Under the pieces are notes generated by a model that searched no databases, was not told the DNA's origin, and saw only the letters and a program-made list of their open reading frames with translations. A stretch of 62,880 nt of DNA, the filler included. It is 3 parts of 3 records of this genome, joined end to end, with 100 filler letters (N's around TTAATTAATTAA, not from the genome) between each part and the next. Parts side by side here need not be neighbours in the genome. Positions count along the whole stretch, not along the records: positions 20,678 to 40,229 come from SRR20825006_256; 2 more parts are not named here. The stretch is one strand, 5' to 3'. This document shows positions 20,578-40,329 of this stretch, in pieces (within the stretch, counting starts at the first letter, position 1; the number at the start of each line of letters is the position of its first letter). A program made the translations under genes and the position numbers.

Positions 20578-20677
20578 NNNNNNNNNNNNNNNNNNNNNNN
20601 NNNNNNNNNNNNNNNNNNNNNTTAATTAATTAANNNNNNNNNNNNNNNNNNNNNNNNNNNNNNNNNNNNNNNNNNNN
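20578..20677. other. Artificial contig-joining spacer
   Basis: N-run containing TTAATTAATTAA (stops in all six frames); base composition changes abruptly across it. Confidence 0.97.
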
Positions 20678-23700: not shown

Positions 23701-23980
23701 GGCTCGCTTTGTTTCCAGAGGTGCGTATGGTATGTAAAATACCTTTGATGATGTCCGGAATAATATTGCGGTGAGCAAGCTGATTGATGCGGTCTACTTG
23801 TCTGCCGCTAAATTCATCCAGTTCTTCAAAGTCCCAGATTAAAACACTAGTCTTTTCAGCCAGTAAGCGCGCTTTAGCTATTGACGAACTGGGGTCAACA
23901 GTATAAAGTTTTTCGGCAAGTGCAGCAATCCCATAAAGTTCCGGATAAACCGGCTGGAGGAAATTAAAGCTTGAGGGCAT
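20759..23980 (-). CDS. hsdR: Type I restriction enzyme R subunit (EcoKI-like HsdR)
   Basis: Nuclease motif ADYALF...VEAKK, Walker A MATGTGKT, DEAHRGY, LTATP, LLTTGIDVP, QMLGRATR. Confidence 0.93.
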   Translation of the reverse strand: MPSSFNFLQPVYPELYGIAALAEKLYTVDPSSSIAKARLLAEKTSVLIWDFEELDEFSGRQVDRINQLAHRNIIPDIIKGILHTIRTSGNKASHDGTGSKPEALFILKKCFQLSKWFYETYENDYITETNYQLTKENKLSVKELSEQVDFLAQQVADYKEKIEQLNSSKAVTDSRKKRSERVAKKLNLSEKDTRLTLIDPQLRAAGWEADTTELNYKTHKTLPEKGRFMAISEWPCEGGWADYALFIDTTLYGIVEAKKYSSDISTDLRQSKIYAGCIEATEQFELLGDWFDYKAPFLFSTNGRDYLEQIKTKSGIWFLDVRNNHNHPYPLRGWFSPQGLKDLFDKKTEEENKRLVQSDYDYLQDKNGLGLRDYQINAIKAVETKIIKNREELKSLLVMATGTGKTRTVIGLTYRLIKANRFKRILFLTDRRLLAKQALGNYKDNKVEGINTFSEVYQIEDMKTSIPDADTRIHFATVQSLVKRLFYNDTDKLPIDTYDCIIIDEAHRGYNLDKELDEEDFSFKDQNDYVSQYKRVIEYFNAYIIGLTATPALHTTQIFGKPVYSYSYRQAVIDGYLADHDPPHRIKTKLSEEGILWKKGERPKVFNPETNKIEELAELEDDMLVEIEQFNKLVITDDFNRTVIKQLVQYLDPNSEEKTLIFAVRDSHADLIVNQLHEEFHNIGFDVPQGAIEKITGSIKDPEELTRRYKNEKFPNIAVTVDLLTTGIDVPAICNLVFLRRVSSRILFEQMLGRATRKCDEIGKESFDIYDAVRVHEALDDYTQMKPVSNPSTSFTQLVEELDHIETEERVQTQVEQLLSKLQRKRKKIEAEDMEEFIYRSGGLEPQEIIETIKNASQQEVKKIIQSYSNLWNYLDRKIYRPKVQLVSEHKDEFLGTDRDYGKAQKPEDYIEGFKKYIKENKNKIAALQAIVTSPTSLDRKSLKELKLQLDAEGFNTRALQTAWKQVKNQDIAADIIAYIRTLALDVDLIPQEQRIANAFAKIQAMHNWNKIQQRWLDRFKAQLIAEAILTKEDLNNDPFKEEGGYTRINKIFEGNVDAVLQTLNDNLYSEGA

Positions 23981-25197: not shown

Positions 25198-25490
25198 CAT
25201 ATTGTAAAGATCCCATCATCTAGGGAAGATTTCCTCAAATAAGATGTTAGCAAAATCCGCAAACTGTGCTTTGTAATTGATATAAGGCGGTGTTACTATA
25301 TAAGACTTCAAATTTAAAGTGTATAGCTATTTCAGGACTAACACCTAGAGATGTATAACCACATCAGGATTAAAGGACACTCAGATAAGGCTTTAATGCA
25401 GCTACTTGGTTCACCCGAGGATACTGCATAGATAAAGCATAGATAGAGTATGGATACAGTATGAAGAGCTTATGAAAGGAGTAGGCTGAA

Positions 25491-25742
25491 TTAAGATGTC
25501 TTTTTAAAGAGCGATTTCAGCGGAACTTTTAGCTCTTTTGCAATTAGTAATAGAGTTTCGAAAGTAGGATTTGTATTGCCTCGCTCTATTTCACCTATTG
25601 TTTTTTTCGCGTGTCCTGTTCTGAGACCGAGTTCTTCCTGAGAAATAGGTTTGTTGGTTTTAGGATTAATCACAAATTGACGTAAATCAGCAATTCTTGC
25701 TCCTAGTTCTTCTTTCTCTTTTTTGAATTTTATATTGGACAT
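25491..25742 (-). CDS. XRE/Cro-family helix-turn-helix regulator
   Basis: LGARIADLR...ISQEELGLRTG...IGEIERGNTNPTFETLLLIAKELKV; divergent from the sigma gene. Confidence 0.9.
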   Translation of the reverse strand: MSNIKFKKEKEELGARIADLRQFVINPKTNKPISQEELGLRTGHAKKTIGEIERGNTNPTFETLLLIAKELKVPLKSLFKKTS

Positions 25743-25775
25743 CAAGATAAAATTCTTAGTTTATCTTAATATTTT

Positions 25776-25795
25776 AGGATACATATATGTATCCT
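25776..25795. promoter_or_regulatory. Perfect 20-bp palindrome, candidate HTH operator
   Basis: AGGATACATA/TATGTATCCT, ~35 nt upstream of the HTH start and between the divergent genes. Confidence 0.65.
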
Positions 25796-25828
25796 TTTGT
25801 TATATTTATTATATTTACCTCATAATTA

Positions 25829-25836
25829 TATATTTG
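25829..25836 (+). promoter_or_regulatory. Bacteroidetes -7 promoter element (TAnnTTTG) facing the sigma-dCas12f operon
   Basis: TATATTTG matches the TAnnTTTG consensus. Confidence 0.55.
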
Positions 25837-25882
25837 CGAAACTTCTTTAAGTAACATATTAGAAGCATTCGCTTTGAATCTC

Positions 25883-25991
25883 GCTATCAAAAACTGGTAA
25901 TTTTTATGCAACGAGAGGATAAGCCGGGATGCTCACGACCCGGGCGTGGGCTCTCACTTATTGTTGCGTGGTATACCAGTGCCCTGATAGC
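25883..25991 (+). ncRNA. Long nested stem-loop in the leader of the sigma gene (structured leader or ncRNA)
   Basis: Nested pairings GCTATCA/TGATAGC, ACTGGTA/TACCAGT, GCAAC/GTTGC, ATAAG/CTTAT, GCTCACG/CGTGGGC; a U-rich run follows at 26011-26021. Confidence 0.55.
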
Positions 25992-26181
25992 ATAAGTTGA
26001 GACCTGCGCCTTTTCTTTTTTCTCAGCACTTCTCAACATTCAAGCCGTGTTTCTTCCTTAACGAAGGCGAGCAGCCACACCCCAATTTCAAAATTGGCAA
26101 CTTGCCGGGTACCCCTATGCCTACAAGCAAGCCAAGAACCCCCTAAACTAATGCTTATGTAAGAACTAAAACGGGTTAAGA

Positions 26182-26970
26182 ATGAAACGATTTTCAGCAG
26201 ACAAACACTATACAGGGTTCAAACACGGCTGCCCTAGGGCCTTCAAAGCCATTTATACCCAATACCATCGGCAGATCTATTGGATGGGACGGAGTTTGAT
26301 CAAAGATGTATTTGTGGTAGAAACCTTGGTACAAGACACTTTTCTCACCCTATGGGAAAAACGCGAAAGCATTGAGTCTCCACAACATCTGGTCAATTTT
26401 CTATATACCGTCATTTTCAATGAATGCAAATGGTATTATGCGCGGCCTAAAAATCAGTTTAATCGGGAGTGTTATGCTTTAGAAAAGATAGACAACTTCC
26501 AAAGCTTTATGCTGGGCTATGATCCCACAGCGGTAGACATACATTTAGAAGACCAGCAACAACAGGAAAAGGAGTATGAGCAGGTGGTTAAGGTATTGCC
26601 GCTTTTGGGTGCCCCACGCCAACGCCTTATCGAGCTTTGTTTGCAACACGGTTTTAAATACAAAACCATTTCCGAGCAGTTGGGCATCAGCATCAAAGAA
26701 ACCAGTAATACACTCCAGCAAACCATCGAAGAGATCAAAAACATTTTGCATCAAGGCTATGTACTCCAACCTCAGGAAACTGAGCCAATGCAAAACGGAG
26801 AAGGGCAGATGACTGAGCAGGAAGCTCGTGTACACGCACTTCGTTGTGAGCAGCAATACTCGTTTGCCCAGATCGCTAACGAACTCCAACTTTCCCAAAA
26901 GGAAGTACATCGCGCCTTTACCACGGCCTATAAGCTCTTACAGCAGCACGAACACTTACAATCCGCTTGA
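26182..26970 (+). CDS. rpoE: Atypical ECF (sigma-70 family, RpoE-like) sigma factor with an extra C-terminal HTH
   Basis: Region-2-like AFKAIYTQY...LVQDTFLTLWEKR, region-4-like RQRLIELCLQHGFKYKTISEQLGIS, and a second HTH YSFAQIANELQLSQKEV. Confidence 0.8.
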   Translation: MKRFSADKHYTGFKHGCPRAFKAIYTQYHRQIYWMGRSLIKDVFVVETLVQDTFLTLWEKRESIESPQHLVNFLYTVIFNECKWYYARPKNQFNRECYALEKIDNFQSFMLGYDPTAVDIHLEDQQQQEKEYEQVVKVLPLLGAPRQRLIELCLQHGFKYKTISEQLGISIKETSNTLQQTIEEIKNILHQGYVLQPQETEPMQNGEGQMTEQEARVHALRCEQQYSFAQIANELQLSQKEVHRAFTTAYKLLQQHEHLQSA

Positions 26971-28070
26971 TGATGAACAACAAGACCTTAAGCCTTACCC
27001 GCAAGATCCAACTCAAGGTAGATTTGCCTACCTATGAAGAGCGTAAAGAAGCGATTGGTAAACTCTACCAATGGCAAAACCGCTGCTTTAAAGCGGCCAA
27101 CATCATCGTGACCCAATTGTACTGCCAGGAAATGATCAAGGAGTTCTTTTACCTGACCGAAGACATCCAATACAAACTGGCCGATCAAAAGAAAGACGAA
27201 AACGGTATCTTAAACCGTTCGCGCATCAACACCACTTATCGGGTAATCGCAGACCGCTTTAAAGGAGAGATCCCGATGGAAATCTTATCCAACCTCAATC
27301 GGAACTTAGAAAGTAGCTTCAATAAAAACAAACCCAAATATTGGAAGGGCGAGCGCTCCCTCAAAAACTTCAGGCGGGACATTGGTTTTCCGTTTCCTGC
27401 GCGCTGTATGTGGGGCTTCAAGCACGACCCCGAGCGTAATGCCTTCTGTTTTCGCTTATTTCAGATTCCCTTTTGCACCTATCTGGGCAGGGACTTTTCC
27501 GATAAGCGGGACCTCTTGCATCGGGCGGTAAAGGGGGAGGTGCGCCTACGCACTTCAGAGATCAAATTGACCGATACAAAGATCTTTTGGTTGGCGGTAT
27601 TTGATATTGAGCAAGAGCAGCACGCTTTAAAACCGGAGGTGATTGCCGAAGCTTCCTTGTCGCTGGAGCATCCCATCAGCGTCAAAGTGGGCAGCAACAG
27701 GTTAAACATCGGGACCAAAGAAGAATTCCTCTACCGTCGCTTGGCCATCCAAGCCGCCCGGAAGCGTGCCCTGGCCGGAACCGTAAATTCTCGAGGTGGT
27801 CACGGCCGCACCCGCAAGCTTAAAGCGGTGGAAAAATATAAGGACAAAGAGACCAAGTACGTCAATCAGCGCTTACACGTTTACAGCAGAAGACTCATAG
27901 ACTTTTGTGTCAAACACCAAGCAGGCACACTGATCTTGATTAATCAAGAAGACAAGATCGAAGCCGCTAAAGAAAATCAATTTGTCCTCAGAAACTGGAA
28001 CTATTACGAACTCACTAAAAAAATAGAATACAAAGCCAAAAAAGCAGGAATTGAATTGGTCATAGATTAA
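26970..28070 (+). CDS. Nuclease-dead Cas12f/TnpB-like RNA-guided DNA-binding protein (dCas12f)
   Basis: Cas12f-like elements LTRKIQL, GHGRTRKLK, HVYSRRLIDF and LRNWNYYELTKKIEYKAKKAGI. The RuvC-I position reads ASLSL (no Asp) and RuvC-II reads LILIN (no Glu); the protein ends before the zinc finger and RuvC-III. Start overlaps the sigma stop (TGATG). Confidence 0.8.
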   Translation: MMNNKTLSLTRKIQLKVDLPTYEERKEAIGKLYQWQNRCFKAANIIVTQLYCQEMIKEFFYLTEDIQYKLADQKKDENGILNRSRINTTYRVIADRFKGEIPMEILSNLNRNLESSFNKNKPKYWKGERSLKNFRRDIGFPFPARCMWGFKHDPERNAFCFRLFQIPFCTYLGRDFSDKRDLLHRAVKGEVRLRTSEIKLTDTKIFWLAVFDIEQEQHALKPEVIAEASLSLEHPISVKVGSNRLNIGTKEEFLYRRLAIQAARKRALAGTVNSRGGHGRTRKLKAVEKYKDKETKYVNQRLHVYSRRLIDFCVKHQAGTLILINQEDKIEAAKENQFVLRNWNYYELTKKIEYKAKKAGIELVID

Positions 28071-28094
28071 ACCTATTGATTGATTTTATGATCA

Positions 28095-28182
28095 GAGGGT
28101 GCTTGTACACCCGTAATGTGAGGTCACGGGCACTCACCAAATGCAAAAGCATATACAACGGCGTGTTCATCTACACTTAGAA
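28095..28182 (+). ncRNA. Putative guide RNA 1 (scaffold 28095-28165 plus variable 3' guide TTCATCTACACTTAG...)
   Basis: Three-hairpin repeat unit starting 25 nt after the dCas12f stop and repeated 160 nt later. The guide 3' end is approximate. Confidence 0.7.
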
Positions 28183-28254
28183 AACAAGAGCTTTTTAGTG
28201 AAGCACATAAAATAAAAATGGTTGAGTTTTTAATCTTGAATTTGGAATATAATC

Positions 28255-28344
28255 GAGGGTACTTGTATACCCGTAGGGTGAGGCTGAAGCGCTCACTAAA
28301 TATCATACCGATATATACAATGGCGTGAGTTAGTTATCTTTAAA
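28255..28344 (+). ncRNA. Putative guide RNA 2 (scaffold 28255-28327 plus variable 3' guide AGTTAGTTATCTTTA...)
   Basis: Second copy of the scaffold with compensatory changes; similarity to copy 1 ends sharply after GGCGTG. Confidence 0.7.
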
Positions 28345-28499
28345 CCGTTTTAAAATGATTGAACACAAAAGGTCCTAGTTTTATCCAGCCTTAATACTAT
28401 TAAGAATTATCCCTTGATAAACTACACGTTTGGTTAATTGTAAAGGTTGGTTTAGGTTCCGAATGAAGTGTAATCAACAGCTTATTTTTTAAAGAAAAC

Positions 28500-29093
28500 A
28501 TGAAAAAAATCATACTTCCATTAATACTTATCCTAGTTATATATCACTCTTGTTTAGATCAAAATCAAAATCAGTCTAGTGCAATTGATACAGGGTTATT
28601 TAAAGAAGTTCAAAGTGATAGTATAAGCTTTAAAATCCCTGATACACTAAACGTTACACAAAATAAAAGGATAAACGCTTTGGTGCTCTTAAACCCTCAA
28701 AGTTCTAAATCATATTACGCGCTTATTTTAAATCCCGCAAAAGAAATAAGAACTACTGAAGAATACATTAAAGCAGTATTTTCAAACTTAAAGAGGGATT
28801 ATGGTAATTACGAGTATAGTTTAACAAAGGTACACTTGGACACGGGAGCTCATTTTTATTATATAAATGTCCTTATCGAAGATGATAAGGAAACGTACCG
28901 CATACACAATTTGATCTATTTAAAAGATGATCATTTTTATGATTTCAGTTTGCGGGGTTTAAATAAAGACTTTCAAAGTAAAGACTACGAGCGCTTATTT
29001 AAAAAAATAGTCTTTAGTACTAGAGTAAACAAAGAAGAGTTATTTCGTGCAGAAAATACCAAAGTAGTAAGAGAGGAGAATGTAGTACTGTAG
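28500..29093 (+). CDS. Hypothetical lipoprotein
   Basis: MKKIILPLILILVIYHSC signal peptide II-like N-terminus; 197 aa. Confidence 0.65.
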   Translation: MKKIILPLILILVIYHSCLDQNQNQSSAIDTGLFKEVQSDSISFKIPDTLNVTQNKRINALVLLNPQSSKSYYALILNPAKEIRTTEEYIKAVFSNLKRDYGNYEYSLTKVHLDTGAHFYYINVLIEDDKETYRIHNLIYLKDDHFYDFSLRGLNKDFQSKDYERLFKKIVFSTRVNKEELFRAENTKVVREENVVL

Positions 29094-29210
29094 AATCCTT
29101 TAGTATCTGGAAGTTTATAGATATAATGTAAAAGGATTGATAAATACCTAATATGCAACTTCTCATAAGGAAAGAGGTCTATTGATTTGTATTAACCTAC
29201 CAATTCTATT

Positions 29211-30971
29211 ATGCCTTATATTCGATCCTTCCTTGTGCTGCTATGTGTAGTAATCAGTATTCAATCTGCTTTTTCCCAAGAAAAATACAATCTGAATTTT
29301 AATGATTTTGATCCAAACGAAGAGCGCTTGCCTGAAGGCTGGTTCGTATGGGGTGATTTTAAAACCGTTGTTGGGGATCGAGAAAATCCAAACAATGCAG
29401 TAGGTAAAATAGTATCCGACAAAAAAGGAAAATTTGGATGCATTGCCTATCAAATTCCAGCAAATTATATCGGAGATACCATTGTACTATCAGGTAAAAT
29501 CAAGTATGAAAAGGTCAAAAATTATGTAGGGCTGCTCATACGTATTGATGGTAAAAAATCAGTAGCCTTTAGAAGTATGCAATACTTGCAAATGCGGGGT
29601 TCTAGGGATTGGAAAGAATATTCGATAAAACTTCCTTATCCTACGAACGCCGCAAACATCTATGTGGGCGGAATTTTAGGCAAAGGAGGTACGGCTTGGT
29701 TTGATGATTTTAAGGTGACTATAGACGGAAAAGACATCCAGACCCTTGAAGAAACACCAGTTCAGACTTTAGCGCAAGTAGATAGTAAACAGCTACAACA
29801 GGCGATCAAGCAAGCTTCAAGTCCGCTGGATTGGTCTACAGATGCTCAATTGAGTAAAGATCTGGATGCATTAATTGAGAAGGTGGGAGATAAGCGCATT
29901 GTAGCCTTAGGAGAAAGTACGCATGGCACTTCCGAATTTTACAAGTTAAGAGCTTTACTTACGAAGAGATTAGTAGAAGAAAAGGGCTTTAATCAGGTGG
30001 TTTTAGAAAACCCCTATGACAATATCGAACGTTTAAATATGGAATTGAATACCAAACTGCTTGACAGTCTAATCAAGAGGGACCTGTTCTCCATTTATCA
30101 GACCGAAGAGGTGAAATCCTTTTTAGAATGGTACAAAAACAAGCGTACTAAAGTTGATGTGGAATTCAAGGGATGTGACGATTCCTATTGGTCTTTCCTT
30201 GAAGTCTTGACCGATCGATTAAAAGATATTCCGGATAACCAGTTGGAGCTACAAGTACAACAGCTTAAAACCCACGTATCGAAATCAACTAAAGCTAACC
30301 GCAAGAAAGAAATTCGGTTCAACAATTTGATCTATGAGGATATCGTCCAAATCGAAAAGTATCTAAAAGACGCCAATATGCTTGATGAGGATCTTGAAGA
30401 GCTCCTGTTCAACGGGAAGAATTCCTATATCAATTATGTGCACATAAAAAATGGCAAACCCATTCAAAGTCGGGACAAAATCATGGCAGATCGAATAGCG
30501 TATTTGGCTAGAGATAATAATAATAAGATCATTGTCTGGGCGCATAATGCACACATTGCTAACGAAGTCATAGCAGACAACGAAATAGGTGTTATGGGGA
30601 GAGATCTAAAAGCAGTCTTTGGGGAAGATTACTACACAATAGGGCAAATGACTTCAGAAGGGACCTATTCCTATATGGAGGAGAAGTTGATCAATGCGGA
30701 TAAGGATTATTCCGAAATACTTAAAACAGCAGTATTGCAGCAGCAAGACGAACTCTTATGGGAAGATCTATTCGCTGGGTGTTCTGAAGCGTTTATACTA
30801 GATCAAAAAGAACTAAAGAAGTCTTTTGATAAACGTATTATGGGACTTACCAAGTTGGTTGGTTATGCCAAAGAAACTGAAAAAGACCAGTATTTCTTAC
30901 CGCTTATGGAATATTACGATTCCCTGATTTACATTAACAAAACCCAAGCGACTTCACTTCTTTTTGATTAA
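29211..30971 (+). CDS. Secreted erythromycin-esterase-family protein with an N-terminal beta-sandwich-like domain
   Basis: Signal peptide; RIVALGESTHGTSEF, RDKIMAD and IIVWAHNAHI motifs. Confidence 0.85.
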   Translation: MPYIRSFLVLLCVVISIQSAFSQEKYNLNFNDFDPNEERLPEGWFVWGDFKTVVGDRENPNNAVGKIVSDKKGKFGCIAYQIPANYIGDTIVLSGKIKYEKVKNYVGLLIRIDGKKSVAFRSMQYLQMRGSRDWKEYSIKLPYPTNAANIYVGGILGKGGTAWFDDFKVTIDGKDIQTLEETPVQTLAQVDSKQLQQAIKQASSPLDWSTDAQLSKDLDALIEKVGDKRIVALGESTHGTSEFYKLRALLTKRLVEEKGFNQVVLENPYDNIERLNMELNTKLLDSLIKRDLFSIYQTEEVKSFLEWYKNKRTKVDVEFKGCDDSYWSFLEVLTDRLKDIPDNQLELQVQQLKTHVSKSTKANRKKEIRFNNLIYEDIVQIEKYLKDANMLDEDLEELLFNGKNSYINYVHIKNGKPIQSRDKIMADRIAYLARDNNNKIIVWAHNAHIANEVIADNEIGVMGRDLKAVFGEDYYTIGQMTSEGTYSYMEEKLINADKDYSEILKTAVLQQQDELLWEDLFAGCSEAFILDQKELKKSFDKRIMGLTKLVGYAKETEKDQYFLPLMEYYDSLIYINKTQATSLLFD

Positions 30972-31053
30972 TAACTCAGAATACCTGTTTGATAGATAGG
31001 TTTCAGTTTTACAATTCAAATAGTTTAAGCAAGAAGGAGGAAGCCGTAATATA

Positions 31054-31875
31054 CTACCATTGAAAACTGGCGAATACTGGTAAATGATCTGACGCATAGT
31101 GTTCATCAATTACTAGATGGTTGTTCAGCTTGAAAAAAGACTTTGGTTTAAAGGCTATAAAATCAATAGCCTTTGACGGATTTTCTACGGGGATTGTGGG
31201 CGGACAAGAGGAGCAGGTTCTTGTAAATACGCTATCGAGTGAGGTAATTACTGGACTGTTTGCTACGGTATTAAAATCTCCAGCCACCAGCACAGGTTGG
31301 TTTAAATTGGTAGTGATATTTAATAGTTCTTCTATTTGTAAGATCCGGTTGGTATCTTCTTTCTGAGAATCTAAATGGGTACTTGCAAACCAAATGGTCT
31401 GCGCATCCGGTAACTGGATCAATGACAGCGCCAAAACTCGAGGTTCTCCGTGAGTTTTAGGTTTTGAAGGAAGTTTATAGACCTTAGATGCTATAATAGG
31501 GAATCGAGAAAGAATAGCAACACCGTATGCTCCGTTTTGAAAATCTATTGACTTACCAAAGAATACCTGCATTCCCAGGGCATCTCCAATCTTTTGGGCT
31601 TGATTTCCAGAACCCGAGCGCTCCGTATCTGAATCGATTTCTTGTAAAGCAACGAGATCTGCATCACTATCTTTGATGACTTGAATGATGGCTGAGAGAT
31701 CTATACTGTCCTTATGCATCGGCGGATTCGCGTGATGAATGTTATAGCTTAAGACCTTCAGTTGATTGGAGGAGTTTCCAAAAGTAGCCGTGGAGCGCTC
31801 TTGAGAAAGCATTGGGTAAAAGGATAAAAAAAGGATTATCTTGAAGATAATCCCTTTAGTCATTTTTGTATGCAT
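31054..31875 (-). CDS. Endonuclease/exonuclease/phosphatase (EEP) family protein
   Basis: VLSYNIHH, VALQEID, STHLD, AGDFN, IDFI, ASDHLPV; start uncertain (31893/31875/31863). Confidence 0.88.
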   Translation of the reverse strand: MHTKMTKGIIFKIILFLSFYPMLSQERSTATFGNSSNQLKVLSYNIHHANPPMHKDSIDLSAIIQVIKDSDADLVALQEIDSDTERSGSGNQAQKIGDALGMQVFFGKSIDFQNGAYGVAILSRFPIIASKVYKLPSKPKTHGEPRVLALSLIQLPDAQTIWFASTHLDSQKEDTNRILQIEELLNITTNLNQPVLVAGDFNTVANSPVITSLDSVFTRTCSSCPPTIPVENPSKAIDFIAFKPKSFFKLNNHLVIDEHYASDHLPVFASFQW

Positions 31876-31905
31876 AGTGTTGTATGGGTTCATTAGGTAA
31901 AGCTA

Positions 31906-32763
31906 TTAGTTCTCTGTTAGTTCAACTTTTGCAATCACAGGAAAGTGATCAGAGATATAGCGATCTCCGCGTTGTCCATCTAAAATTTGTAAAGTTAAGG
32001 GTTGCACCCCTCCCGAGTAGAATATGTTATCTATTCTACTATCTGAGGTTCTTCCTGTTGCATCCCATCCATTAGCACTGTATTCGGGACCATAGACCTG
32101 ATCTGCATCTAAAGTAAGGTACGGATCTTTCAATCCGGAGCTTAAGAGGGTAGCGATAGCCTCACTTTTCGGCGAACTATTAAAATCACCCGTGAGTAGC
32201 ACGGGGGAGGTTCCGGCAATTTCCTTAATTTTTTGAGTAAGTAAAGCTGCACTTGCTATTCGAGCTTGTTTTCCTCGGTGATCAAAATGCGTATTGAAGT
32301 GATAGAAGCTTACTCCAGAGTGTTTATCTTTAAATAAAGCCCAAGTTACAATACGGGGTAAAGCCGCGTCCCAACCCTTGGAAGCGACAACATCTGGTGT
32401 TTCTGAAAGCCAAAAGGTATTGCTATCTAAAACTTCAAAGCGCTCTTTTTTATAGAAAATCGCAGAGTACTCTCCTTGAGTTGCACCTTCGCGACCTATA
32501 CCTACGTGCGCGTAATAAGGTAGGAGTACTTCCATATCCAAAAGTTGGGTATGGGTGACTTCTTGGGTACCAATAAGGTCTGCTTGATAAAACCGAATAC
32601 TGTGGGTGAGCCAGTCTTTACGCTGCTCCCATATATTGATCCCGTCTTCAGGACTATTATAGCGTATATTGAACGAACTTATTACAAGTTCCCTCTTGCT
32701 TTTCTGAGCATTTACACTGCTGAATAGGAGCAGTGCAAATGCAATAGATACTAGGGTTCTCAT
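31906..32763 (-). CDS. Secreted EEP-family protein
   Basis: SFNIRY, GTQE, FWLSETP, NTHFDH, GDFN, SDHFPV; ATG overlaps the susD stop (TAATG). Confidence 0.9.
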   Translation of the reverse strand: MRTLVSIAFALLLFSSVNAQKSKRELVISSFNIRYNSPEDGINIWEQRKDWLTHSIRFYQADLIGTQEVTHTQLLDMEVLLPYYAHVGIGREGATQGEYSAIFYKKERFEVLDSNTFWLSETPDVVASKGWDAALPRIVTWALFKDKHSGVSFYHFNTHFDHRGKQARIASAALLTQKIKEIAGTSPVLLTGDFNSSPKSEAIATLLSSGLKDPYLTLDADQVYGPEYSANGWDATGRTSDSRIDNIFYSGGVQPLTLQILDGQRGDRYISDHFPVIAKVELTEN

Positions 32764-34502
32764 TAGTTCCAACCAGGGTTTTGTTCCAGATTAGGATTGA
32801 GTTGTAATTCTATACGCGGTATAGGGTAGAGATAATCCTTGTTTTCATCAAAACTTCTGTTGTTAAAATCCGGATGAGGATCAATCAATCCATTCATGTC
32901 CAAGGTGAAATCTGAATCTAAGCGATAATATTGAATTCCGCTTATTGGATTCGCTGGTCGTTCTCCTTCATAAAGCACGACATTTATAGCACCATCTCCG
33001 GTAAGGTCATATTCACCTGGTCCGGGGAAGTATAAACCTCGAATAGGTTGGGTAAGGGTTTGGCCGGCTTTCCAGCGCACCACATCATCCCATCTGAAGT
33101 TTTCCATATACAATTCAATGCGTCGCTCTCGTCTTATTTCTAAAATAACACCAGTATTTGCTCCGGTTACATCGGGATACTGAGCTGCCATAAACGAATC
33201 TGGTGCTGCATTTGCTGTATCTAGATTCAAATCAGGCATACCAACGCGTTGTCTTAGTAAATTAATGGAATTATTGAGATCTTCTTGAGATAGCGTTCCT
33301 AATTCAGCTTTAGCTTCTGCATAATTCAAGAGCACTTCTCCAAAACGATAGATAGGAAGATCCGTAATAGACTGCCCATTGGTATCATAAACCGGCTCGG
33401 TCACATACTTTATGATTTGATAACCGGTAACTGTAGCTCCAAGATTAGGAGCCAACTCAATACTTTGTCCTTTTCGGGTATATCCTGGAGTGCGTATCGT
33501 CTGTGCCAAACGAGGGTCTCGATTTTGAACTTCTTCAGTAAAGGACAGTTGATTATAGCCTGCTCTATCTGTAAAACGCGTTCCATCAGCATTCAGATAG
33601 CTATTTACAAGATCTTTCGGCATACCTGGACGACCATACGAACTTGTCGTGGTGTAGTAATTTACATTATGACCAATATTAAGATCTTCCGAATAGGCGC
33701 GGGCTAAGATCACTTCAGTTTCATTAGCATCATGTGAATTAAACAACTCTAGATAATCTTGTTCCGGATTTCCTGTGCTGTAAATCTGATAAGGAGAATC
33801 TTCAATCAATGCAGTTGATGCTGCTACAGAGGCTTCTAGGTATTTTTCATAACCGTCAATCCCTCTATATTTCTCGTAAGTTCCCTCATAAAGTCCGATC
33901 CTTGATTTTAAAGCCAAAGCCGTATACTTAGTCACTTCATATGTATTTTGCTCTTCATTGAGGTTTTCAATGGCCCAGTCTAGATCTTCAAGCATTTTAT
34001 CAACAACATACTGTCTTGAGTCTCTAGGTTTGGTAAGGGCTTCAGTATCGTCTGGAGCTATGGGAGCGTCATACCAGGGTAAAGCACCAAAGCGTTGGAA
34101 CTTATCGAAGTAAAACCGCGCTCTAAAAAAGCGAGCTACCCCTCCATAATGGGCTTTAGCCGCTTCATCATCAGATTTTTCGTATTCCTGAAGAAAGAAA
34201 TTGATGTCGCGCAAATATTCCCAATTCCAACCGCCTCCGGTCGTAGGTACTAGCCTTGCGCCACGCATTTCTTCACTCAATTCAGTTTGTATAATATTGT
34301 CTGTACTCGCTTCTCCGTTGTAGATGGAAGTACTGGGCCACATCCGGTAAAACCCGTTGGTGTACAGTTGAAGATCACTAGCGGTATTGAAAAAGGTTTC
34401 AGCAGTAATTTCAGATAGCGGTTGCTTGTCTAAAAAATCATCACTGCACGAACTGATGCTGGTTGCTACAAGCAAACCGGCAAGTATATGTTTAACTTTC
34501 AT
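32763..34502 (-). CDS. susD: SusD/RagB family nutrient-binding lipoprotein
   Basis: Lipobox SSC-SDDFLD, RFGEVLLNYAEA, IRRERRIEL...RWDDVVRW, YLYPIP...NPNLEQNPGW. Confidence 0.93.
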   Translation of the reverse strand: MKVKHILAGLLVATSISSCSDDFLDKQPLSEITAETFFNTASDLQLYTNGFYRMWPSTSIYNGEASTDNIIQTELSEEMRGARLVPTTGGGWNWEYLRDINFFLQEYEKSDDEAAKAHYGGVARFFRARFYFDKFQRFGALPWYDAPIAPDDTEALTKPRDSRQYVVDKMLEDLDWAIENLNEEQNTYEVTKYTALALKSRIGLYEGTYEKYRGIDGYEKYLEASVAASTALIEDSPYQIYSTGNPEQDYLELFNSHDANETEVILARAYSEDLNIGHNVNYYTTTSSYGRPGMPKDLVNSYLNADGTRFTDRAGYNQLSFTEEVQNRDPRLAQTIRTPGYTRKGQSIELAPNLGATVTGYQIIKYVTEPVYDTNGQSITDLPIYRFGEVLLNYAEAKAELGTLSQEDLNNSINLLRQRVGMPDLNLDTANAAPDSFMAAQYPDVTGANTGVILEIRRERRIELYMENFRWDDVVRWKAGQTLTQPIRGLYFPGPGEYDLTGDGAINVVLYEGERPANPISGIQYYRLDSDFTLDMNGLIDPHPDFNNRSFDENKDYLYPIPRIELQLNPNLEQNPGWN

Positions 34503-34513
34503 AAGGATGTTTT

Positions 34514-37500
34514 TTAAAATTTAAGAGATAAGCCTAAAGAATAGGTTTCTGAAAATGGATTGGTTTGAGCTGTTCCTCGATTTGCAGAGGTAGAGGGACT
34601 GTTTAAATTCACAGAAGCACTTGCGGCTTCCGGATCGATATAATCGGTCAGTTTAGAAAAGGTCAGAAGGTTTTCGCCACTGAAGTAGATACGCAGTTTC
34701 GTCGCAGCGGTTTTTGATATCAGTCCGTCAGGAAGTGTATAGCCTAAGGTCAGATTTTTTAGTCTGAGATAGGCCACGCTTTGTAAGTAGCGATCATTTA
34801 CTTTTTCTAAAGAACCACCAAGCGCGATATAACCGTAATTTCGGGGATAGTAAGCATCAGTATTTTCTGGGCTCCACATATCGTCTACCATATCTTTTCT
34901 GATATAAGAATTATAGGGTCTGTTGTAAGGTCCCCAAAACATTCGAGAGTCTGAATTAGGATACCAATCTTGTTTCCCTACACCCTGAAAGAACACAGAA
35001 AAATCAAAACCTTTCCAATTTGCATTAGCCAAAAAGCTGTATAAATATTGCGGAGCAGAATTCCCGATAATTTCACGGTCTCCAGGATTGTCCACGGTAT
35101 TTTCACCTTCTCCTATATAGCCATCACCATCAAGGTCTCTGTATTTTACATCGCCAGGTTGTAGCCCTCCTCCTGAAGTGATTCTATTGGAAACAAAACT
35201 CTGGTCTGCGTGATTGGCAATCTCTTCTTCGGTTTGAAAAAGTCCATCTATGCGATATCCCCAAAGTTCCCCGATGGTCATCCCTTCATAAAAGTCTACC
35301 AGACTACGGTTAGGATTATCAAAGTTGGTTATTTTGGTTTTTGAGTTGGAAAGGTTCGCAGTTACAGACCAGCTGAACGTATCTTCAGCTAATTCAAAAT
35401 AGTCATTGTAGCTCACAGAAAGTTCGAATCCTTTGGTTCTTAAATCTGCAGCATTTTCTAAAGGAGATGCAGTACCTAATACACTGGGTAGTGTAGCTCC
35501 AGGTGAAAGCATTCCTTCGGTATCTCGTTGAAACCAATCAAAAGAAGCAGATAAGTGGTTGTTGAAAACCCCTACATCAACCCCGAAGTCAAGCGTACTT
35601 ACTTTTTCCCAGGTGATCTCGCTAGGGTTTAAGGCTGGAGATTCGATATAATTTAAGCGACTTCCATTAAGAACATAGTCATACAATCCATTTGGCAAAG
35701 TCGGGAAATAAGCATAATTGCTTATGTTTTGATTTCCTAGAGAACCATAGGAAGCACGGAACTTCAGAAGATCAAAGGTTTCTCCTGTGGCATTTTCAAT
35801 AAATTGCTCTTTGTTTGCTAACCAAGCCCCTGAAAAGGAAGGGAAGAATCCCCATCGGTAGGCAGATGGAAAACGTGATGTTGCATCATATCTACCATTA
35901 AACTCAGCTACATATTTATCTTTATAATCATAGGATAGTCTATAAAATAAACCTTGAAGCGCCCACTCTGATGCACTACCAGAGGTGGTAGGATTCGATG
36001 TTGCCAGTCCTAAGGAGTTTAAGTCATTTGAAATTAAATTCTGCTTACTAGCGTTGATGCTCTTGGTAATGAACGTTTCTTGGTTGAAACCAATAGTAGC
36101 TTTTATATTATGATCTCCAAAGTATCCTTTGTACTCGCCATACACGTTGAGCGCATCGTATTTGCTTTCAGTGCGATATTCATTAAGATAATCATTTCCC
36201 ATTAGATCCAATTGTTCAGGATAAATCGAGTAGGGGATACGGGTAGAGCGTTGAAACCTGCTATACTCATTCCGTCTAATAGCATAGTTTGCATTTAAGG
36301 TTACCCCTTTGATGGGTTTAAGTTCTACAGAAGCGATGTTACTAAACTCATTATTATTGGTTTGCTGTTTAGTGGTTCCTTGTAATAGTCCGGCATACAC
36401 ACCATCACCAATCGTATAGTTATTCAGTTCCGTACGCCATAAGGCACCTCCATCAGGATTTACAGGAACATAGGAAGGCAGTGCGTGCACCCATATTAAA
36501 CTTCCCCAAAGGTTGCTGTAGTTTCCATATTGGCTACCACTGTGCTCCAGATCTTCTGAGCTGTTGTACTGCATATTGTTGGAGAACGATAACCAATCTG
36601 TGGCTTTGATATCAATTTTGCCACGTAAATTGTACTTATCGTAATAGTCGTCCTGAACTTTCAGGATCCCTTGAGATTGAAAATTACGATAGGAGAAATA
36701 GGCTTTGATTTTTTCAGAACCTCCGGAAACAGAAGCATTATAAATTTGTGTTGGATAGGTCTTTCTAAAAAAAGTATTCCACCAGTCCGTATAGCCGTAG
36801 TGCACATATTGATCACGCCCATTGCGCTGGTCAATAATTACACGGGCTAGAGAAGGGTCTTGGGAAACTTCATAAAGCGCCTGCATATCTTCTTCCGTAT
36901 AACCGGTATAAGACGCTCCGCTGTTATTTCTAAAAGCTTCATCCACGATGGAAACTGCTTTAAAAGGATCAGTAAGAAAATCGGTATTCATCGTTGGGGA
37001 GTTAATAGCTGTGGTCACTCCCAGATTCACTTGAACACTACCTTTATCCGCATTTTTAGTGGTTACTAAGACCACACCAAAGGATCCTCGCGCTCCATAG
37101 ATCGCGGCAGCTCCGGCATCTTTTAGAACACTGATTGATTCAACATCACTTGGATTGAGGTTGCTCAAGCTGCCTTCTATACCATCAATAAGAATCAGTG
37201 GTGTTCCGCCATTAATAGAGGTAAAACCTCTGATGTTAATACGAGGTTCTGCACCTATTTTACCGGTACTTTGAGTAACATTAAGTCCGGGACTTAGACC
37301 CTGAAGACTTGAGGTAACGTCGGCTACGGGTCTCTGTTCTAAATTTTCAGTGTTGACCGTGCTAACTGCGGTAGAAAGCTTTTCTCGGCTGGTTTCACCA
37401 TAACCTACGACAACCACTTCATCAAGTGCATTATTATCTGCTTGTAATTGAACTTGGATCGGGGCCAAAGATTCAATGGTGATTTCCTGAGTGGTAAATC

Positions 37501-37795
37501 CTATATAGGAAATTTTAATTACGGCAGGTAATTGAGAAACATTAAGTTCAAAGTTACCATCAAAATCAGAGGAGGCCCCATTGGTGGTATTTACTTCCAT
37601 AATAGAAGCTCCCGGTAAAGGCATTCCTGTATTGTCAAGAACCGTTCCTGTTAATTTTTGCTGATCGATGTTTGTGTTTAATGGAACGTTGGCAGCATTA
37701 ATGTAGGTTGAGCAGTAGAGTAATAAAGTAATCGTGACCAAAAATTTGGGCACAAGGGCAGGCAATTCAAAAAATTGAAGTAATTTGGTTTTCAT
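34514..37795 (-). CDS. susC: SusC/RagA TonB-dependent outer-membrane transporter
   Basis: LDEVVVVGYG, VLKDAGAAAIYGARGSFGVVLVTTK, WGFFPSFS, YLRLKNLTLGY and terminal Phe; ATG at 37795. Confidence 0.95.
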   Translation of the reverse strand: MKTKLLQFFELPALVPKFLVTITLLLYCSTYINAANVPLNTNIDQQKLTGTVLDNTGMPLPGASIMEVNTTNGASSDFDGNFELNVSQLPAVIKISYIGFTTQEITIESLAPIQVQLQADNNALDEVVVVGYGETSREKLSTAVSTVNTENLEQRPVADVTSSLQGLSPGLNVTQSTGKIGAEPRINIRGFTSINGGTPLILIDGIEGSLSNLNPSDVESISVLKDAGAAAIYGARGSFGVVLVTTKNADKGSVQVNLGVTTAINSPTMNTDFLTDPFKAVSIVDEAFRNNSGASYTGYTEEDMQALYEVSQDPSLARVIIDQRNGRDQYVHYGYTDWWNTFFRKTYPTQIYNASVSGGSEKIKAYFSYRNFQSQGILKVQDDYYDKYNLRGKIDIKATDWLSFSNNMQYNSSEDLEHSGSQYGNYSNLWGSLIWVHALPSYVPVNPDGGALWRTELNNYTIGDGVYAGLLQGTTKQQTNNNEFSNIASVELKPIKGVTLNANYAIRRNEYSRFQRSTRIPYSIYPEQLDLMGNDYLNEYRTESKYDALNVYGEYKGYFGDHNIKATIGFNQETFITKSINASKQNLISNDLNSLGLATSNPTTSGSASEWALQGLFYRLSYDYKDKYVAEFNGRYDATSRFPSAYRWGFFPSFSGAWLANKEQFIENATGETFDLLKFRASYGSLGNQNISNYAYFPTLPNGLYDYVLNGSRLNYIESPALNPSEITWEKVSTLDFGVDVGVFNNHLSASFDWFQRDTEGMLSPGATLPSVLGTASPLENAADLRTKGFELSVSYNDYFELAEDTFSWSVTANLSNSKTKITNFDNPNRSLVDFYEGMTIGELWGYRIDGLFQTEEEIANHADQSFVSNRITSGGGLQPGDVKYRDLDGDGYIGEGENTVDNPGDREIIGNSAPQYLYSFLANANWKGFDFSVFFQGVGKQDWYPNSDSRMFWGPYNRPYNSYIRKDMVDDMWSPENTDAYYPRNYGYIALGGSLEKVNDRYLQSVAYLRLKNLTLGYTLPDGLISKTAATKLRIYFSGENLLTFSKLTDYIDPEAASASVNLNSPSTSANRGTAQTNPFSETYSLGLSLKF

Positions 37796-37839
37796 CAGAA
37801 TAGAACTATGGATTTGTACTGTAGTTTTAATTTTAATGA

Positions 37840-37865
37840 CCCGTTTCTGTTGCACCAGAAACGGG
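37840..37865 (-). promoter_or_regulatory. 10-bp hairpin in the susC 5' leader
   Basis: Minus strand CCCGTTTCTG-GTGCAA-CAGAAACGGG, 45 nt upstream of the ATG. Confidence 0.6.
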
Positions 37866-38053
37866 CTTTAAATTTTTGGGCTAATTCAAAATAATGTGTC
37901 TTATAATAGGGTCTTTAGGAAGTTAGAATTCTATTTGAAGACAAAAGAAGGGCTTATTTGATTCAATTGTATTAACTGAATTTTATCTAAAACTTAAATG
38001 GTAAATGGTTTTAGTTTGAAGCTTAACTTAGAGTTTACAAAGCATTAGATTTG

Positions 38054-38078
38054 TAGAAGTTGAGTTAATCAACTTCTA
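38054..38078. repeat. 10-bp inverted repeat upstream of susC
   Basis: TAGAAGTTGA-GTTAA-TCAACTTCTA. Confidence 0.55.
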
Positions 38079-38172
38079 TATTATTTTTATAACACTGTAG
38101 AATCCAACGTCACTAAAACTATTACTACAACAATGAACAGTGACAGCATTTGTTTTTTTGAAGAACTAAAAC

Positions 38173-38263
38173 GTGGATTAATTATATCCGTGTATTGTGA
38201 GTAAAAGAATATGCTCATCAAATGCAAAAGCATATAATGGAGTTGAGGGAACTTTAAAGTTTC
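38173..38263 (+). ncRNA. Putative guide RNA 3, a diverged stand-alone copy of the dCas12f scaffold
   Basis: Exact 18-nt match CAAATGCAAAAGCATATA (38219-38236 = 28138-28155) and the same three hairpins in the same order. Confidence 0.6.
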
Positions 38264-38302
38264 AAATTATATTTAGAGCATAAAAATTTAAAGAACTTCT
38301 TT

Positions 38303-39709
38303 TCAATCAAGCATAAGGCTTGGCTCGGTAACTGTCTGATTTTCGATTGCACCTTCTTTTATAAATTCGCTTACGACCTTGTCAAAAGCCTGTGGAGCAA
38401 AGAGAGCGATAAAATGCGGTGCGTTTTGCACCTGTACAAAGGATACTGATGGATTCTTTTCTGCAATAAGCTTATAATGTTTTTTTGCGCCTTCGATATG
38501 GGTTTTAGGATCCAGCGTACCGTGAATGATCAAGGTTGGCGGCATTTTACTAGGTGTCTTTCCAAAATAGGCATCACGCGAGTAGGTCGGCATAGCGTTT
38601 TCGGCAATGAGGTTGGGTAGCGGACTTTTAAAGAGTAATCCTTCAGATTCTTGGACTACTTCGGCTTTCGTCATTTCCGGTCTTAGATTATTTTCTGAAG
38701 CGGTGATCACTTGGGTTAATGGAATTGAATTGGTAGCAGTGGGATAGGCGGATCCATAATCCGTATAAAAGCTAGTGATGTGTTGGATGGCTTGCTGCAG
38801 CGGCTCAAATTTATCGGTCTGTAGCCCCTTGATGATTTCGGGGATGGTATTCCGTACAGCAGGGAGGTCAAGCATCATCCCTAAAAGGAGGGCTAAATCT
38901 TGTTTGGGCAATTCAGCAGCAAACGCATTATCAGTTTTGGCTCGTTCTAAAATAGCTTTCAACTGAGTTTTCAATGATTCTTCATTAGAATTTCTTTGAT
39001 CAAGGTCTTGAAGTAAAGACAATCCAACATTATTGGTTACTAACGAGCGATGGCTCAAATCATAAGCAACATCTTCTTGATGCGGAACGAGAGAATCTAA
39101 AAGAACTGCATCAAAAGCTACAGTTTCCAATTGCAATAAGCGCAATACGAGTTGGGTTCCATAGGATACGCCATAGATATAGCGCTCCCCGGAACCGCTA
39201 TAGGTGTTGATCAATAAGCTCAGGTCTTTAGCCGCATTAGTAATTGTAAAAGATTTTACATAATCCAGATTAGTATACATATTATTAAAACAAGAACCCC
39301 ACTCGTCATTCGCCAAGGCCATTCCTGCGGGAGAGTCTATAGCTTCATCTTGAGGGCATAGTTTACTGGAGTATCCAGTGCCTCGGTGATCTGGAATAAA
39401 AATATCCAGATTCGGAAAAAGTTTAGAGAACTGACCGATCAAGGGATACATACTCGCTCCTGATTCTCCCGGTCCACCCGGGATCAACCAGATGGAACCT
39501 TTACGTTCTTGAACAGCCGGGAATTTTCTAACGAATAACTCAATCTTCGTAGAATCATCTTCTTTATAATTAAGCGGGGCTGTAGAGGTAAAACAAACCG
39601 AGCCATTGAGTTCAGGTATCGTATCAAGCCCAGGACAGGTTTGACTTTGTGTAGTATAAAGGTTTAAGAAGTATAGAAAAAAGATAACAAAAGGAATGCG
39701 ATTTTTCAA
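38303..39709 (-). CDS. Secreted alpha/beta hydrolase (TAP-like peptidase family)
   Basis: PGGPGESG, PDHRGTGYS, nucleophile elbow GVSYGT, HGTLDPKT, APHF; TTG start. Confidence 0.85.
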   Translation of the reverse strand: MKNRIPFVIFFLYFLNLYTTQSQTCPGLDTIPELNGSVCFTSTAPLNYKEDDSTKIELFVRKFPAVQERKGSIWLIPGGPGESGASMYPLIGQFSKLFPNLDIFIPDHRGTGYSSKLCPQDEAIDSPAGMALANDEWGSCFNNMYTNLDYVKSFTITNAAKDLSLLINTYSGSGERYIYGVSYGTQLVLRLLQLETVAFDAVLLDSLVPHQEDVAYDLSHRSLVTNNVGLSLLQDLDQRNSNEESLKTQLKAILERAKTDNAFAAELPKQDLALLLGMMLDLPAVRNTIPEIIKGLQTDKFEPLQQAIQHITSFYTDYGSAYPTATNSIPLTQVITASENNLRPEMTKAEVVQESEGLLFKSPLPNLIAENAMPTYSRDAYFGKTPSKMPPTLIIHGTLDPKTHIEGAKKHYKLIAEKNPSVSFVQVQNAPHFIALFAPQAFDKVVSEFIKEGAIENQTVTEPSLMLD

Positions 39710-40229
39710 AATGAGTGCGTTTTAAAAGGTTAGTTTGTGAAAGGAATAATCCTCACTTAATAAGACGCAGGTTTTACAAGAAGGGTTGCCTGGAGAGCAC
39801 GAAATTTTAAATTTTAGCTGTTTTATTTTTAATCTAAAAGTTTCACCTTCAAAGTAGATTAAACTGAGGTTAACAATTTATTTGGCTAATGACATAACAG
39901 AGGGTGTATCGATATTGAATTTAAATTAATTATCATAGATACTTAATGTAAATTTATAGCGAGTTACATTAATGCGTGACACGATTTACAAGCTGCTAGT
40001 AGCAACGATTTTCCCGGAGTGAGCAGAACGTGAATTTTAAGCAATTTAGATGGGCTCTATTAATTGAAAATAAAACACTTTTAATTAAAATATTCTTTAA
40101 AAAAAAAGTAATGCTATGCTGAATAACCATAATTAAGGGGGCATACTTGTCTAATGAAGATAGCTATACCCTTTTTGCTTAACCACTTCGAATATTTTAT
40201 TTCGGAAAGGCCTTCACAAAAGACAGGTC

Positions 40230-40329
40230 NNNNNNNNNNNNNNNNNNNNNNNNNNNNNNNNNNNNNNNNNNNNTTAATTAATTAANNNNNNNNNNNNNNN
40301 NNNNNNNNNNNNNNNNNNNNNNNNNNNNN
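40230..40329. other. Artificial contig-joining spacer
   Basis: N-run with TTAATTAATTAA at 40274-40285; composition shifts from AT-rich to GC-rich. Confidence 0.97.

Follow-up and report, generated by a model that had tools for sequence, protein, structure and literature searches.

The effector locus and its gene neighbourhood

The window analysed here is a stretch of DNA of 62,880 nucleotides that consists of three contigs joined by N runs around TTAATTAATTAA linkers (20579-20677 and 40230-40329). Its middle contig (20678-40229) has a G+C content of 34-46% and is 93-98% identical to Leeuwenhoekiella, and the outer contigs have a G+C content of 51-59%. The block that holds rpoE-dcas12f, susCD and the guide RNA-like stretch that we refer to as copy 3 is low in G+C. 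The nearest genome compared, G001 (7.1 Mb), contains neither the genes of the middle contig nor the copy 3 stretch nor dCas12f, and the 401 genomes of its family yielded 2 weak matches. The middle contig may come from an organism other than that of the neighbouring contigs, for example through mis-binning.

At the left end of the middle contig lies a gene for a type I restriction enzyme R subunit (HsdR-like, 1073 aa; 20762-23980). Further to the right are an HTH gene on the minus strand (25491-25745) and, on the plus strand, an operon (26182..28070) of rpoE (26182-26970), which encodes a sigmaE factor of 262 aa with sigma70 r2 and r4 domains, and a dcas12f homolog (26967-28070), the 367-aa product of which would have to load the guide RNA. 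This dCas12f shares 98% identity with the L. blandensis MED217 protein and 67% with the homolog of Flagellimonas taeanensis, which is the one used in the experiments of Hoffmann et al. (PMC13472631). The first description of RNA-guided transcription by dCas12f-sigmaE dates from 2026 (Hoffmann et al., Nature 2026, PMC13472631); according to that report, the systems use single guide RNAs (gRNAs) of 85-105 nt with a 14-16-nt guide at the 3' end, transcription starts 46 bp downstream of the target-adjacent motif (TAM), and the targeted sites are found upstream of genes such as susCD, two-component genes and rpoE itself.

Two array gRNAs, each composed of a scaffold and a guide, follow dcas12f on the plus strand: gRNA 1 with guide TTCATCTACACTTA (28090..28179) and gRNA 2 with guide AGTTAGTTATCTTT (28250..28341). 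A repeated TTGAAT ... TTGAATTTGGAA-like motif, which ends 8-10 nt before the scaffold, precedes many array guides (window 28215-28254; loci L003, L006 and L007) and may be their own putative promoter; D-type guides have a different conserved 60-nt leader in common. Beyond the array come two unrelated genes on the plus strand (28500-30971) and then, all on the minus strand, two genes of the endonuclease/exonuclease/phosphatase family (31054-32772), susD (32763-34502), susC (34514-37855) and a gene for an alpha/beta hydrolase (38303-39709).

Two intergenic regions of this contig are represented among contigs from RNA libraries. The first lies between hth and rpoE (25855-26029) and fits the abundant hth-associated ncRNA of the published work (PMC13472631); within it, GGCGTG and the GGCTCTCACTTATTG that comes next resemble the 3' end of a scaffold with a type-C guide. 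At the L. polynyae locus L005, that locus's own type-C guide AGCTTGCTTATTAA has a 13/14 match on the minus strand (7011-6998), preceded by G and situated just upstream of the hth start on the hth strand, for which ~0.002 matches would be expected by chance in this locus (an estimate). The second is an element of ~250 bp between susC and copy 3 (37836-38092), with a mean column identity of 83% in 7 sequences and 100% identity to the related contig L217 over 37796-38071, which appears in RNA-library contigs of two studies (37843/37856 to 38042/38045) and is flanked by terminator-like hairpins on the plus strand (37840-37865 and 38052-38080). It matched no Rfam family and showed no similarity to the hth-rpoE RNA. 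The 13-mer AAGAACTAAAACG occurs both just before the rpoE start codon (26161-26173) and just before the copy 3 scaffold (38161-38173), and it also precedes the corresponding gRNA in the related contig L215; it may reflect chance or a shared signal, and since chance is possible it was dropped as a candidate regulatory site.

Position and components of copy 3

Copy 3 occupies 38168-38259 on the plus strand. As the original prediction had it, the copy lies some 10 kb from dCas12f and is divergent from susC: the distance to the end of dcas12f (28070) is 10.1 kb, which places copy 3 on the far side of the susCD operon and not immediately downstream of dcas12f, ~315 bp separate it from the start of susC (37855, minus strand), and its end is 43 bp from the stop codon of the convergent hydrolase gene. 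All of the motifs by which it was recognised were located in the window in the predicted order. GGAT-N7-ATCC (38175-38189) by itself means little because the pattern has 3 matches in the window; GTGAG-N12-CTCAT (38197-38218) occurs once; and ATGCAAAAGCAT (38222-38233) has one other match in the window, in array copy 1 (28141-28152). The predicted exact match of 18 nt to array copy 1 was likewise found, as CAAATGCAAAAGCATATA (38219-38236), with ~1.3e-4 such matches expected by chance from base composition. The tail of copy 3, ATATAATGGAGTTG (38232-38245), is followed by AGGGAACTTTAAAG (38246-38259).

In terms of the gRNA family, the 5' portion of copy 3 (38142..38236, plus strand) comprises a short leader and the scaffold hairpins P1-P3. 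The P1 remnant (38175..38189), GGAU-UAAUUAU-AUCC, has a stem of 4 bp and a loop of 7 nt where the family has GGGUG-CUUGUA-CACCC, and the loop letters U15 and G16, which are invariant across 109 family members, are altered. The P2 remnant GUGAG...CUCAU (38197..38218) retains the base of its stem, with one G-U pair, and its upper stem has become an A-rich loop. P3, AUGC-AAAA-GCAU (38222..38233), is intact and falls within the 18 nt that array copy 1 shares exactly. The rest of the unit (38237..38259) is formed by the 3' scaffold tail ATGGAGTTG and the 14-nt guide-like tail AGGGAACTTTAAAG. The changes in the first hairpin had been described as compensatory, which is real as far as the base pair is concerned (G-C to A-U) and weak as evidence of selection, because both changes are GC-to-AT transitions and the corresponding stem in L215, which has the closest related copy, has not been kept.

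Comparison with the gRNA family

We scored the window with a covariance model, R1, that was trained on 109 scaffolds from 78 related loci and included no sequence from the window. The bona fide reference copies, array gRNAs 1 and 2, scored 78.7 and 69.7 bits. The third best match, copy 3, scored 13.8 bits (E 0.049, roughly calibrated) with a model whose training set is mostly array copies and which may undervalue a divergent functional class, and the next matches in the window stood at 7.7 and 6.5 bits. In 79 related loci, 111 of 112 family-range matches had at least 60.9 bits (109 of them being the training rows) and the remaining one had 37.4 bits. Background matches in 1.48 Mb of other loci reach 12.5-14 bits, so that on the covariance-model check suggested with the original prediction copy 3 stands barely above background, and the case that a structure model can make for it alone is marginal. 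A profile of copies 1 and 2 found copy 3 with nhmmer at 8.6 bits (E 3.2), and Rfam, at gathering and E-value thresholds, gave nothing beyond chance for it.

Conservation in the family is 90% or higher at 45 columns, of which copy 3 retains 26 and has lost 19, among the latter the invariant G of the loop and, beside the guide, the C of ACAAC; on the same columns, family members retain 38-45, the orthologs of the hydrolase-adjacent copy described below 34-35 and other dispersed copies 29-39. With a score at background level and 26 of 45 conserved positions, the description of copy 3 as a third, stand-alone guide scaffold does not hold if an intact guide is meant.

The published gRNA structure has four paired regions, P1-P4, and a P5 hairpin in the guide (10.1101/2025.06.10.658880). 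In the family examined here the pairing of P3 is supported by covariation, and the P1 loop (UUGUA) forms a pseudoknot with UACAA just after P3 (alignment A3, columns 14-18 with 74-78). Two of the 5 pairs of the P1-loop pairing covary: among 108 distinct sequences, U-A has become C-G in 5 at one pair and in 3 at the other, and none is broken there. This pairing probably corresponds to the fourth region of pairing in the cryo-EM paper (10.1101/2025.06.10.658880). The invariant G and C of the pairing are changed in copy 3, where a pairing of 5 bp, all of them A-U, between the P1 loop (38181-38185) and 38234-38238 could take the place of the family pseudoknot. P1 (4 bp), the base of P2 and P3 are still able to form, in a weakened shape, and the plus strand folds better than its shuffles (z -2.2, with 6 of 200 shuffles as good); the minus strand gives z -2.4. 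The conserved core of the family, P1-P3 together with the P1-loop pairing, is nevertheless not preserved as such in copy 3.

Hybrid ancestry and a missing segment

Four related metagenome contigs, L215-L218, carry orthologs of the hydrolase gene at 87-93% identity. In L217 the order is hydrolase, a gRNA that we call D' (43.9 bits, guide AGCGAACTTTAAAC), a DUF983 gene, an AraC-family gene, gRNA_y (54.7 bits, type 2), gRNA_x (23.8 bits, type 1, guide TTCATCTACATTTA), a conserved leader and susC. The gRNAs of L215 and L216 are laid out in the same way, so that three contigs agree on the order, and gRNA_x, gRNA_y and D' all point in the same direction in the related contigs. The window is without the ~1.9 kb between gRNA_x and D', that is, without gRNA_y, the AraC-family gene and the DUF983 gene.

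Alignments with blastn place the two sides of copy 3 at the two ends of this segment. Positions 37215-38236 of the window match L215 6273-5249, on the side from susC to gRNA_x, at 95.9%, and from 38232 onward the window matches the side from D' to the hydrolase gene, at 93.2% to L215 and 90.7% to L217. The alignments to both contigs overlap at ATATA (38232..38236, within GCATATA), where homology switches from gRNA_x to D'. Left of this joint copy 3 matches gRNA_x of L215 and L217 at 87 of 97 positions (90%) and D' at 60-62%; right of it, 38237-38302 match the 3' part of D' at 58 of 66 positions (88%) and the 3' part of gRNA_x at 56%. The 5' portion thus derives from a degenerate type-1 gRNA_x and the tail and guide from the hydrolase-adjacent D'-type gRNA. 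Same-direction parental copies flank the segment that is missing from the window, and the breakpoint lies within the copies, as in a recombination scar. At the level of sequence, these alignments show both the hybrid ancestry of copy 3 and the loss of the segment.

The comparison also accounts for the 18-nt identity with array copy 1, because gRNA_x is itself a type-1 copy. That 18-mer, together with the 88-90% identity to two gRNA copies in the related contigs, secures the homology that the model score alone left marginal, and a graded series of scores links gRNA_x and D' to intact copies. Judged by primary sequence, then, copy 3 is a true homolog of the dCas12f-sigmaE gRNAs, by descent from the same RNA gene family.

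It is very unlikely that the resemblance is due to chance or that the joint is an assembly artefact that skips between two repeats, even though the covariance score by itself is marginal and a window made of a chain of separate contigs makes assembly quality a fair worry: the exact 18-mer has an expectation of only ~1e-4, each half of copy 3 is 88-90% identical to a known copy, gRNA_x and D' share only ATATA at the joint and no long exact word, so that a k-mer assembler could not have jumped there, and the sampled words of 37856-38302 are found in three sequencing runs (all of them in two runs, 93% in the third), all of one study, one of which may be the source itself.

Dispersed and worn gRNA copies in Leeuwenhoekiella

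Guide RNAs encoded 'elsewhere in the genome' constitute category IV of Hoffmann et al. (PMC13472631), and dispersed guides in this system are therefore already published and not new. Among 23 Leeuwenhoekiella genomes, 47 of the 65 R1 matches lie within 1 kb downstream of the dCas12f gene (median 78.7 bits; 4 below 60 bits) and 18 lie elsewhere (median 57.2 bits; 10 below 60 bits), some of the latter on short contigs of draft genomes. With 18 of 65 matches elsewhere and a lower median score, dispersed copies are a common feature of the genus and show more wear on average. The gene order of the window recurs in L. marinoflava, with two well-scoring gRNAs (79.6 and 62.2 bits) upstream of, and divergent from, the orthologous susC. 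Weaker copies occur in other genomes of the genus, upstream of susC at 47.2 and 42.5 bits and beside the hydrolase ortholog at 47.2 bits. The L. blandensis region upstream of susC is shared with the window only as far as 38092 and contains no copy 3; an AraC-like ORF on the reverse strand, identified by reading, follows the leader. The proposal that guides can be dispersed away from the effector gene is consequently sound for the genus, as the 18 of 65 matches and L. marinoflava illustrate, and is not supported for copy 3 itself, with its background score, its lost positions, its lower conservation than the flanks and no target detected.

The D' orthologs form a series of decay at one and the same locus, with 47.2 bits in L163, 43.9 bits in L217 and L218, 40.1 bits in L215 and 33.7 bits in L216. 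The D' copies of L215 and L216 differ by one G-to-A change, which lies inside P3.

Sequence conservation across copy 3

The identities between the window and its relatives vary along the neighbourhood of copy 3. The scaffold part derived from gRNA_x is 88.6% identical to L217 and 90.0% to L215, the tail 71.4% to each and the guide 85.7% to each, and the conserved element next door reaches 100% and 97.6%, respectively; the 3' flank that is shared with the D' locus up to the hydrolase stop codon (38260..38302) is 93% identical to both contigs, and L163 is alignable there too. The scaffold and tail of copy 3 are the least conserved segment of the neighbourhood. Under purifying selection for a guide, scaffold and guide would be more conserved than their flanks, which is not what is found for copy 3 and which argues against function. 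Array gRNA 1 has the opposite pattern when compared with L. blandensis, with 94.4% identity in the scaffold, 100% in the guide and 54-80% in the flanks.

Guide, targets and expression

The guide-like tail belongs to a recurrent guide family, AG-N-GAACTTTAAA-S, that is found in L006, L005, L152, L163 and L215-L218. It agrees at 13 of 14 positions with the fourth array guide of L. marinoflava and at 12 of 14 with the guide of L215-L218, and it forms a P5-like hairpin. Position 3 of the guide, in the seed, varies among orthologs (T, C or G).

The target search that had been proposed with the tail of copy 3 found no target in the window or in related genomes. In the window AGGGAACTTTAAAG has 4 matches with 2-3 mismatches, all of them inside ORFs and none intergenic. 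Matches to the guide family in five related genomes were no commoner than those of a reversed-pattern control, and those examined lay in ORFs or had no consistent flanking base; one exact match, in L. marinoflava, is preceded by T, with ~0.1 expected by chance (an estimate from composition). The degenerate pattern GAGTKMAYTTWTA gave counts in related genomes equal to the control, and the 13 that were checked among the 27 matches listed all lay in ORFs. In L. blandensis the AGTTAG-type guide had fewer matches than its control, and when all guides of five genomes were compared with their own susC-upstream regions the best agreement was 10/14, which is noise level.

As a positive control the F. 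taeanensis guide was not crisp, with only 12/14 matches in the strain examined. Array guide 1 (TTCATCTACACTTA) gave four intergenic matches of 13-14/14 in L. blandensis (L193, L199, L200; G402:C1, 1538390-1550994), upstream of a response regulator with an H-NOX gene, of a DUF4114 gene and of a STAS-domain gene and in the same direction, and these near-perfect matches indicate that the search method works. Each of the four sites follows a CCA, where a 5'-G is reported for F. taeanensis, and this clade may have a different flanking motif.

A TTTG box, which resembles boxes ahead of type-1 copies and is a possible promoter element, stands 14 nt before the copy 3 scaffold. Among the contigs of four RNA-labelled runs over 25400-39800, none reaches copy 3; array guides 1 and 2 are just as uncovered, and the contigs therefore do not bear on copy 3 in either direction. 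We also considered AGTTAGAATTCTAT at 37921 (plus strand; 10/14 to guide 2, preceded by A) as a site that might drive transcription into copy 3 and rejected it, because its agreement with the guide is poor and the RNA contigs already begin upstream of the start site that it would predict.

Origin and status of copy 3

In the scenario that we consider most plausible, the ancestor would have carried gRNA_x beside the susC leader, gRNA_y, and D' beside the hydrolase gene (beyond the AraC and DUF983 genes) between susC and hydrolase, with gRNA_x and D' probably already degenerate. In the lineage of the window, recombination between the 3' scaffold regions of gRNA_x and D' would then have removed ~1.9 kb, and the fusion product would combine the P1-P3 scaffold of gRNA_x with the tail and guide of D'. 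We infer that this hybrid is no longer a working guide: it would probably not be loaded by dCas12f, would exert no regulation and would be drifting towards A+T. The possibility raised originally, that copy 3 is a relic of a second, deleted cassette, comes close to this history; a relic it appears to be, as the hybrid left by a deletion of ~1.9 kb, and not the remnant of a cassette with an effector gene of its own. The background-level score, the lost conserved positions, the selection pattern, the decay series of D' and the outcome of the target searches lead us to read copy 3 as a pseudo-guide, a non-functional recombination scar, and it is likely, on balance of these observations, that it does not work.

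An unlikely alternative has copy 3 as a divergent stand-alone guide that still works, transcribed from its own weak promoter, for which the TTTG box could serve, loaded by dCas12f and directing sigmaE-RNAP to a site elsewhere that matches AGGGAACTTTAAAG; the recombination would in that case represent a natural swap of a guide onto another scaffold. Such a guide would have published and genus-wide precedents (18 of 65 matches are dispersed), its AGGGAACTTTAAAG is well kept by comparison with L. marinoflava and L215-L218, and P1, the base of P2, P3 and possibly an A-U pseudoknot could still give it a fold. Its R1 score is however that of background, the 19 lost positions include the invariant loop G and the C of ACAAC, its scaffold is less conserved than its flanks where array gRNA 1 shows the reverse, a seed position of its guide is variable among orthologs, and no target was found for it in the window or in related genomes.

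It is still less probable, and in our estimation quite improbable, that copy 3 has been kept for a job unrelated to dCas12f, its gRNA ancestry being incidental. It could in that case be part of a regulatory RNA, or act as a terminator or insulator that separates the convergent hydrolase gene from transcripts running rightward out of the conserved element upstream of susC. The site between the end of the convergent gene (38303) and an element that is present in RNA libraries would suit such a role, the guide and the bases next to it form a palindrome, GGGAACTTTAAAGTTTC, and the 3' flank is conserved at 93%. Against this, a terminator scan of both strands found no terminator-like site inside 38168-38302, its hits being those at 37840-37865 and 38052-38080 (plus strand) and 38432-38418 (minus strand), the scaffold part evolves faster than all of its surroundings, and Rfam gave no match beyond chance.

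Relation to known systems and implications

Copy 3 resembles the gRNAs of dCas12f-sigmaE systems in its order of hairpins, in the 18-nt block of array copy 1 and in the 14-nt tail in the position of the guide, and its location on the rpoE-dcas12f contig beside a susCD operon is a typical neighbourhood for such loci (PMC13472631). It departs from them in being a fusion of two copies with a background-level score and with 19 of 45 conserved positions lost. Degenerate or hybrid gRNA copies are not mentioned in the text of PMC13472631, the supplementary tables of which may list such copies. Single guides of the ancestral type, the TnpB omega-RNAs and the guide RNAs of TldR (PMC13472631), share with copy 3 a compact scaffold followed by a guide at the 3' end and are encoded next to or near the effector gene, but they belong to another scaffold family, and no model of those families, from Rfam or elsewhere, gave a match here.

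The loss of CRISPR spacers by recombination between repeats leaves a hybrid repeat, and the event proposed for copy 3 is similar in that recombination joins two conserved RNA-gene modules of the same direction into a chimeric one and eliminates the intervening DNA. It differs in that the parents of copy 3 are full scaffold-plus-guide genes, separated by 1.9 kb that includes protein-coding genes, in that the partners are only ~60% alike, and in the lack of both an array and an adaptation machinery.

A more far-reaching conjecture, to which we assign little probability, is that the hybrid still works and that scaffold recombination is the way in which dCas12f-sigmaE systems, which are without genes for spacer acquisition, move guides and rewire regulons. 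If this were true, copy 3 would document a guide swap in nature, and the worn, dispersed copies of Leeuwenhoekiella would be a reservoir of guides rather than a graveyard.

On the reading that we favour, that of a non-functional scar, copy 3 exemplifies the decay of a guide and not a new regulator, and the proximal array of two guides is the only credible guide set in the window. For the annotation of related genomes this means that a scaffold-like match is insufficient to extend a regulon, and that the model score, the conservation relative to the flanks and the target should be checked. The guide genes of this genus behave like dispersed repeats, which are copied around the susCD locus and decay away from the effector gene, and which can recombine with one another with loss of the genes that lie between them, among them, in the present case, an AraC regulator.
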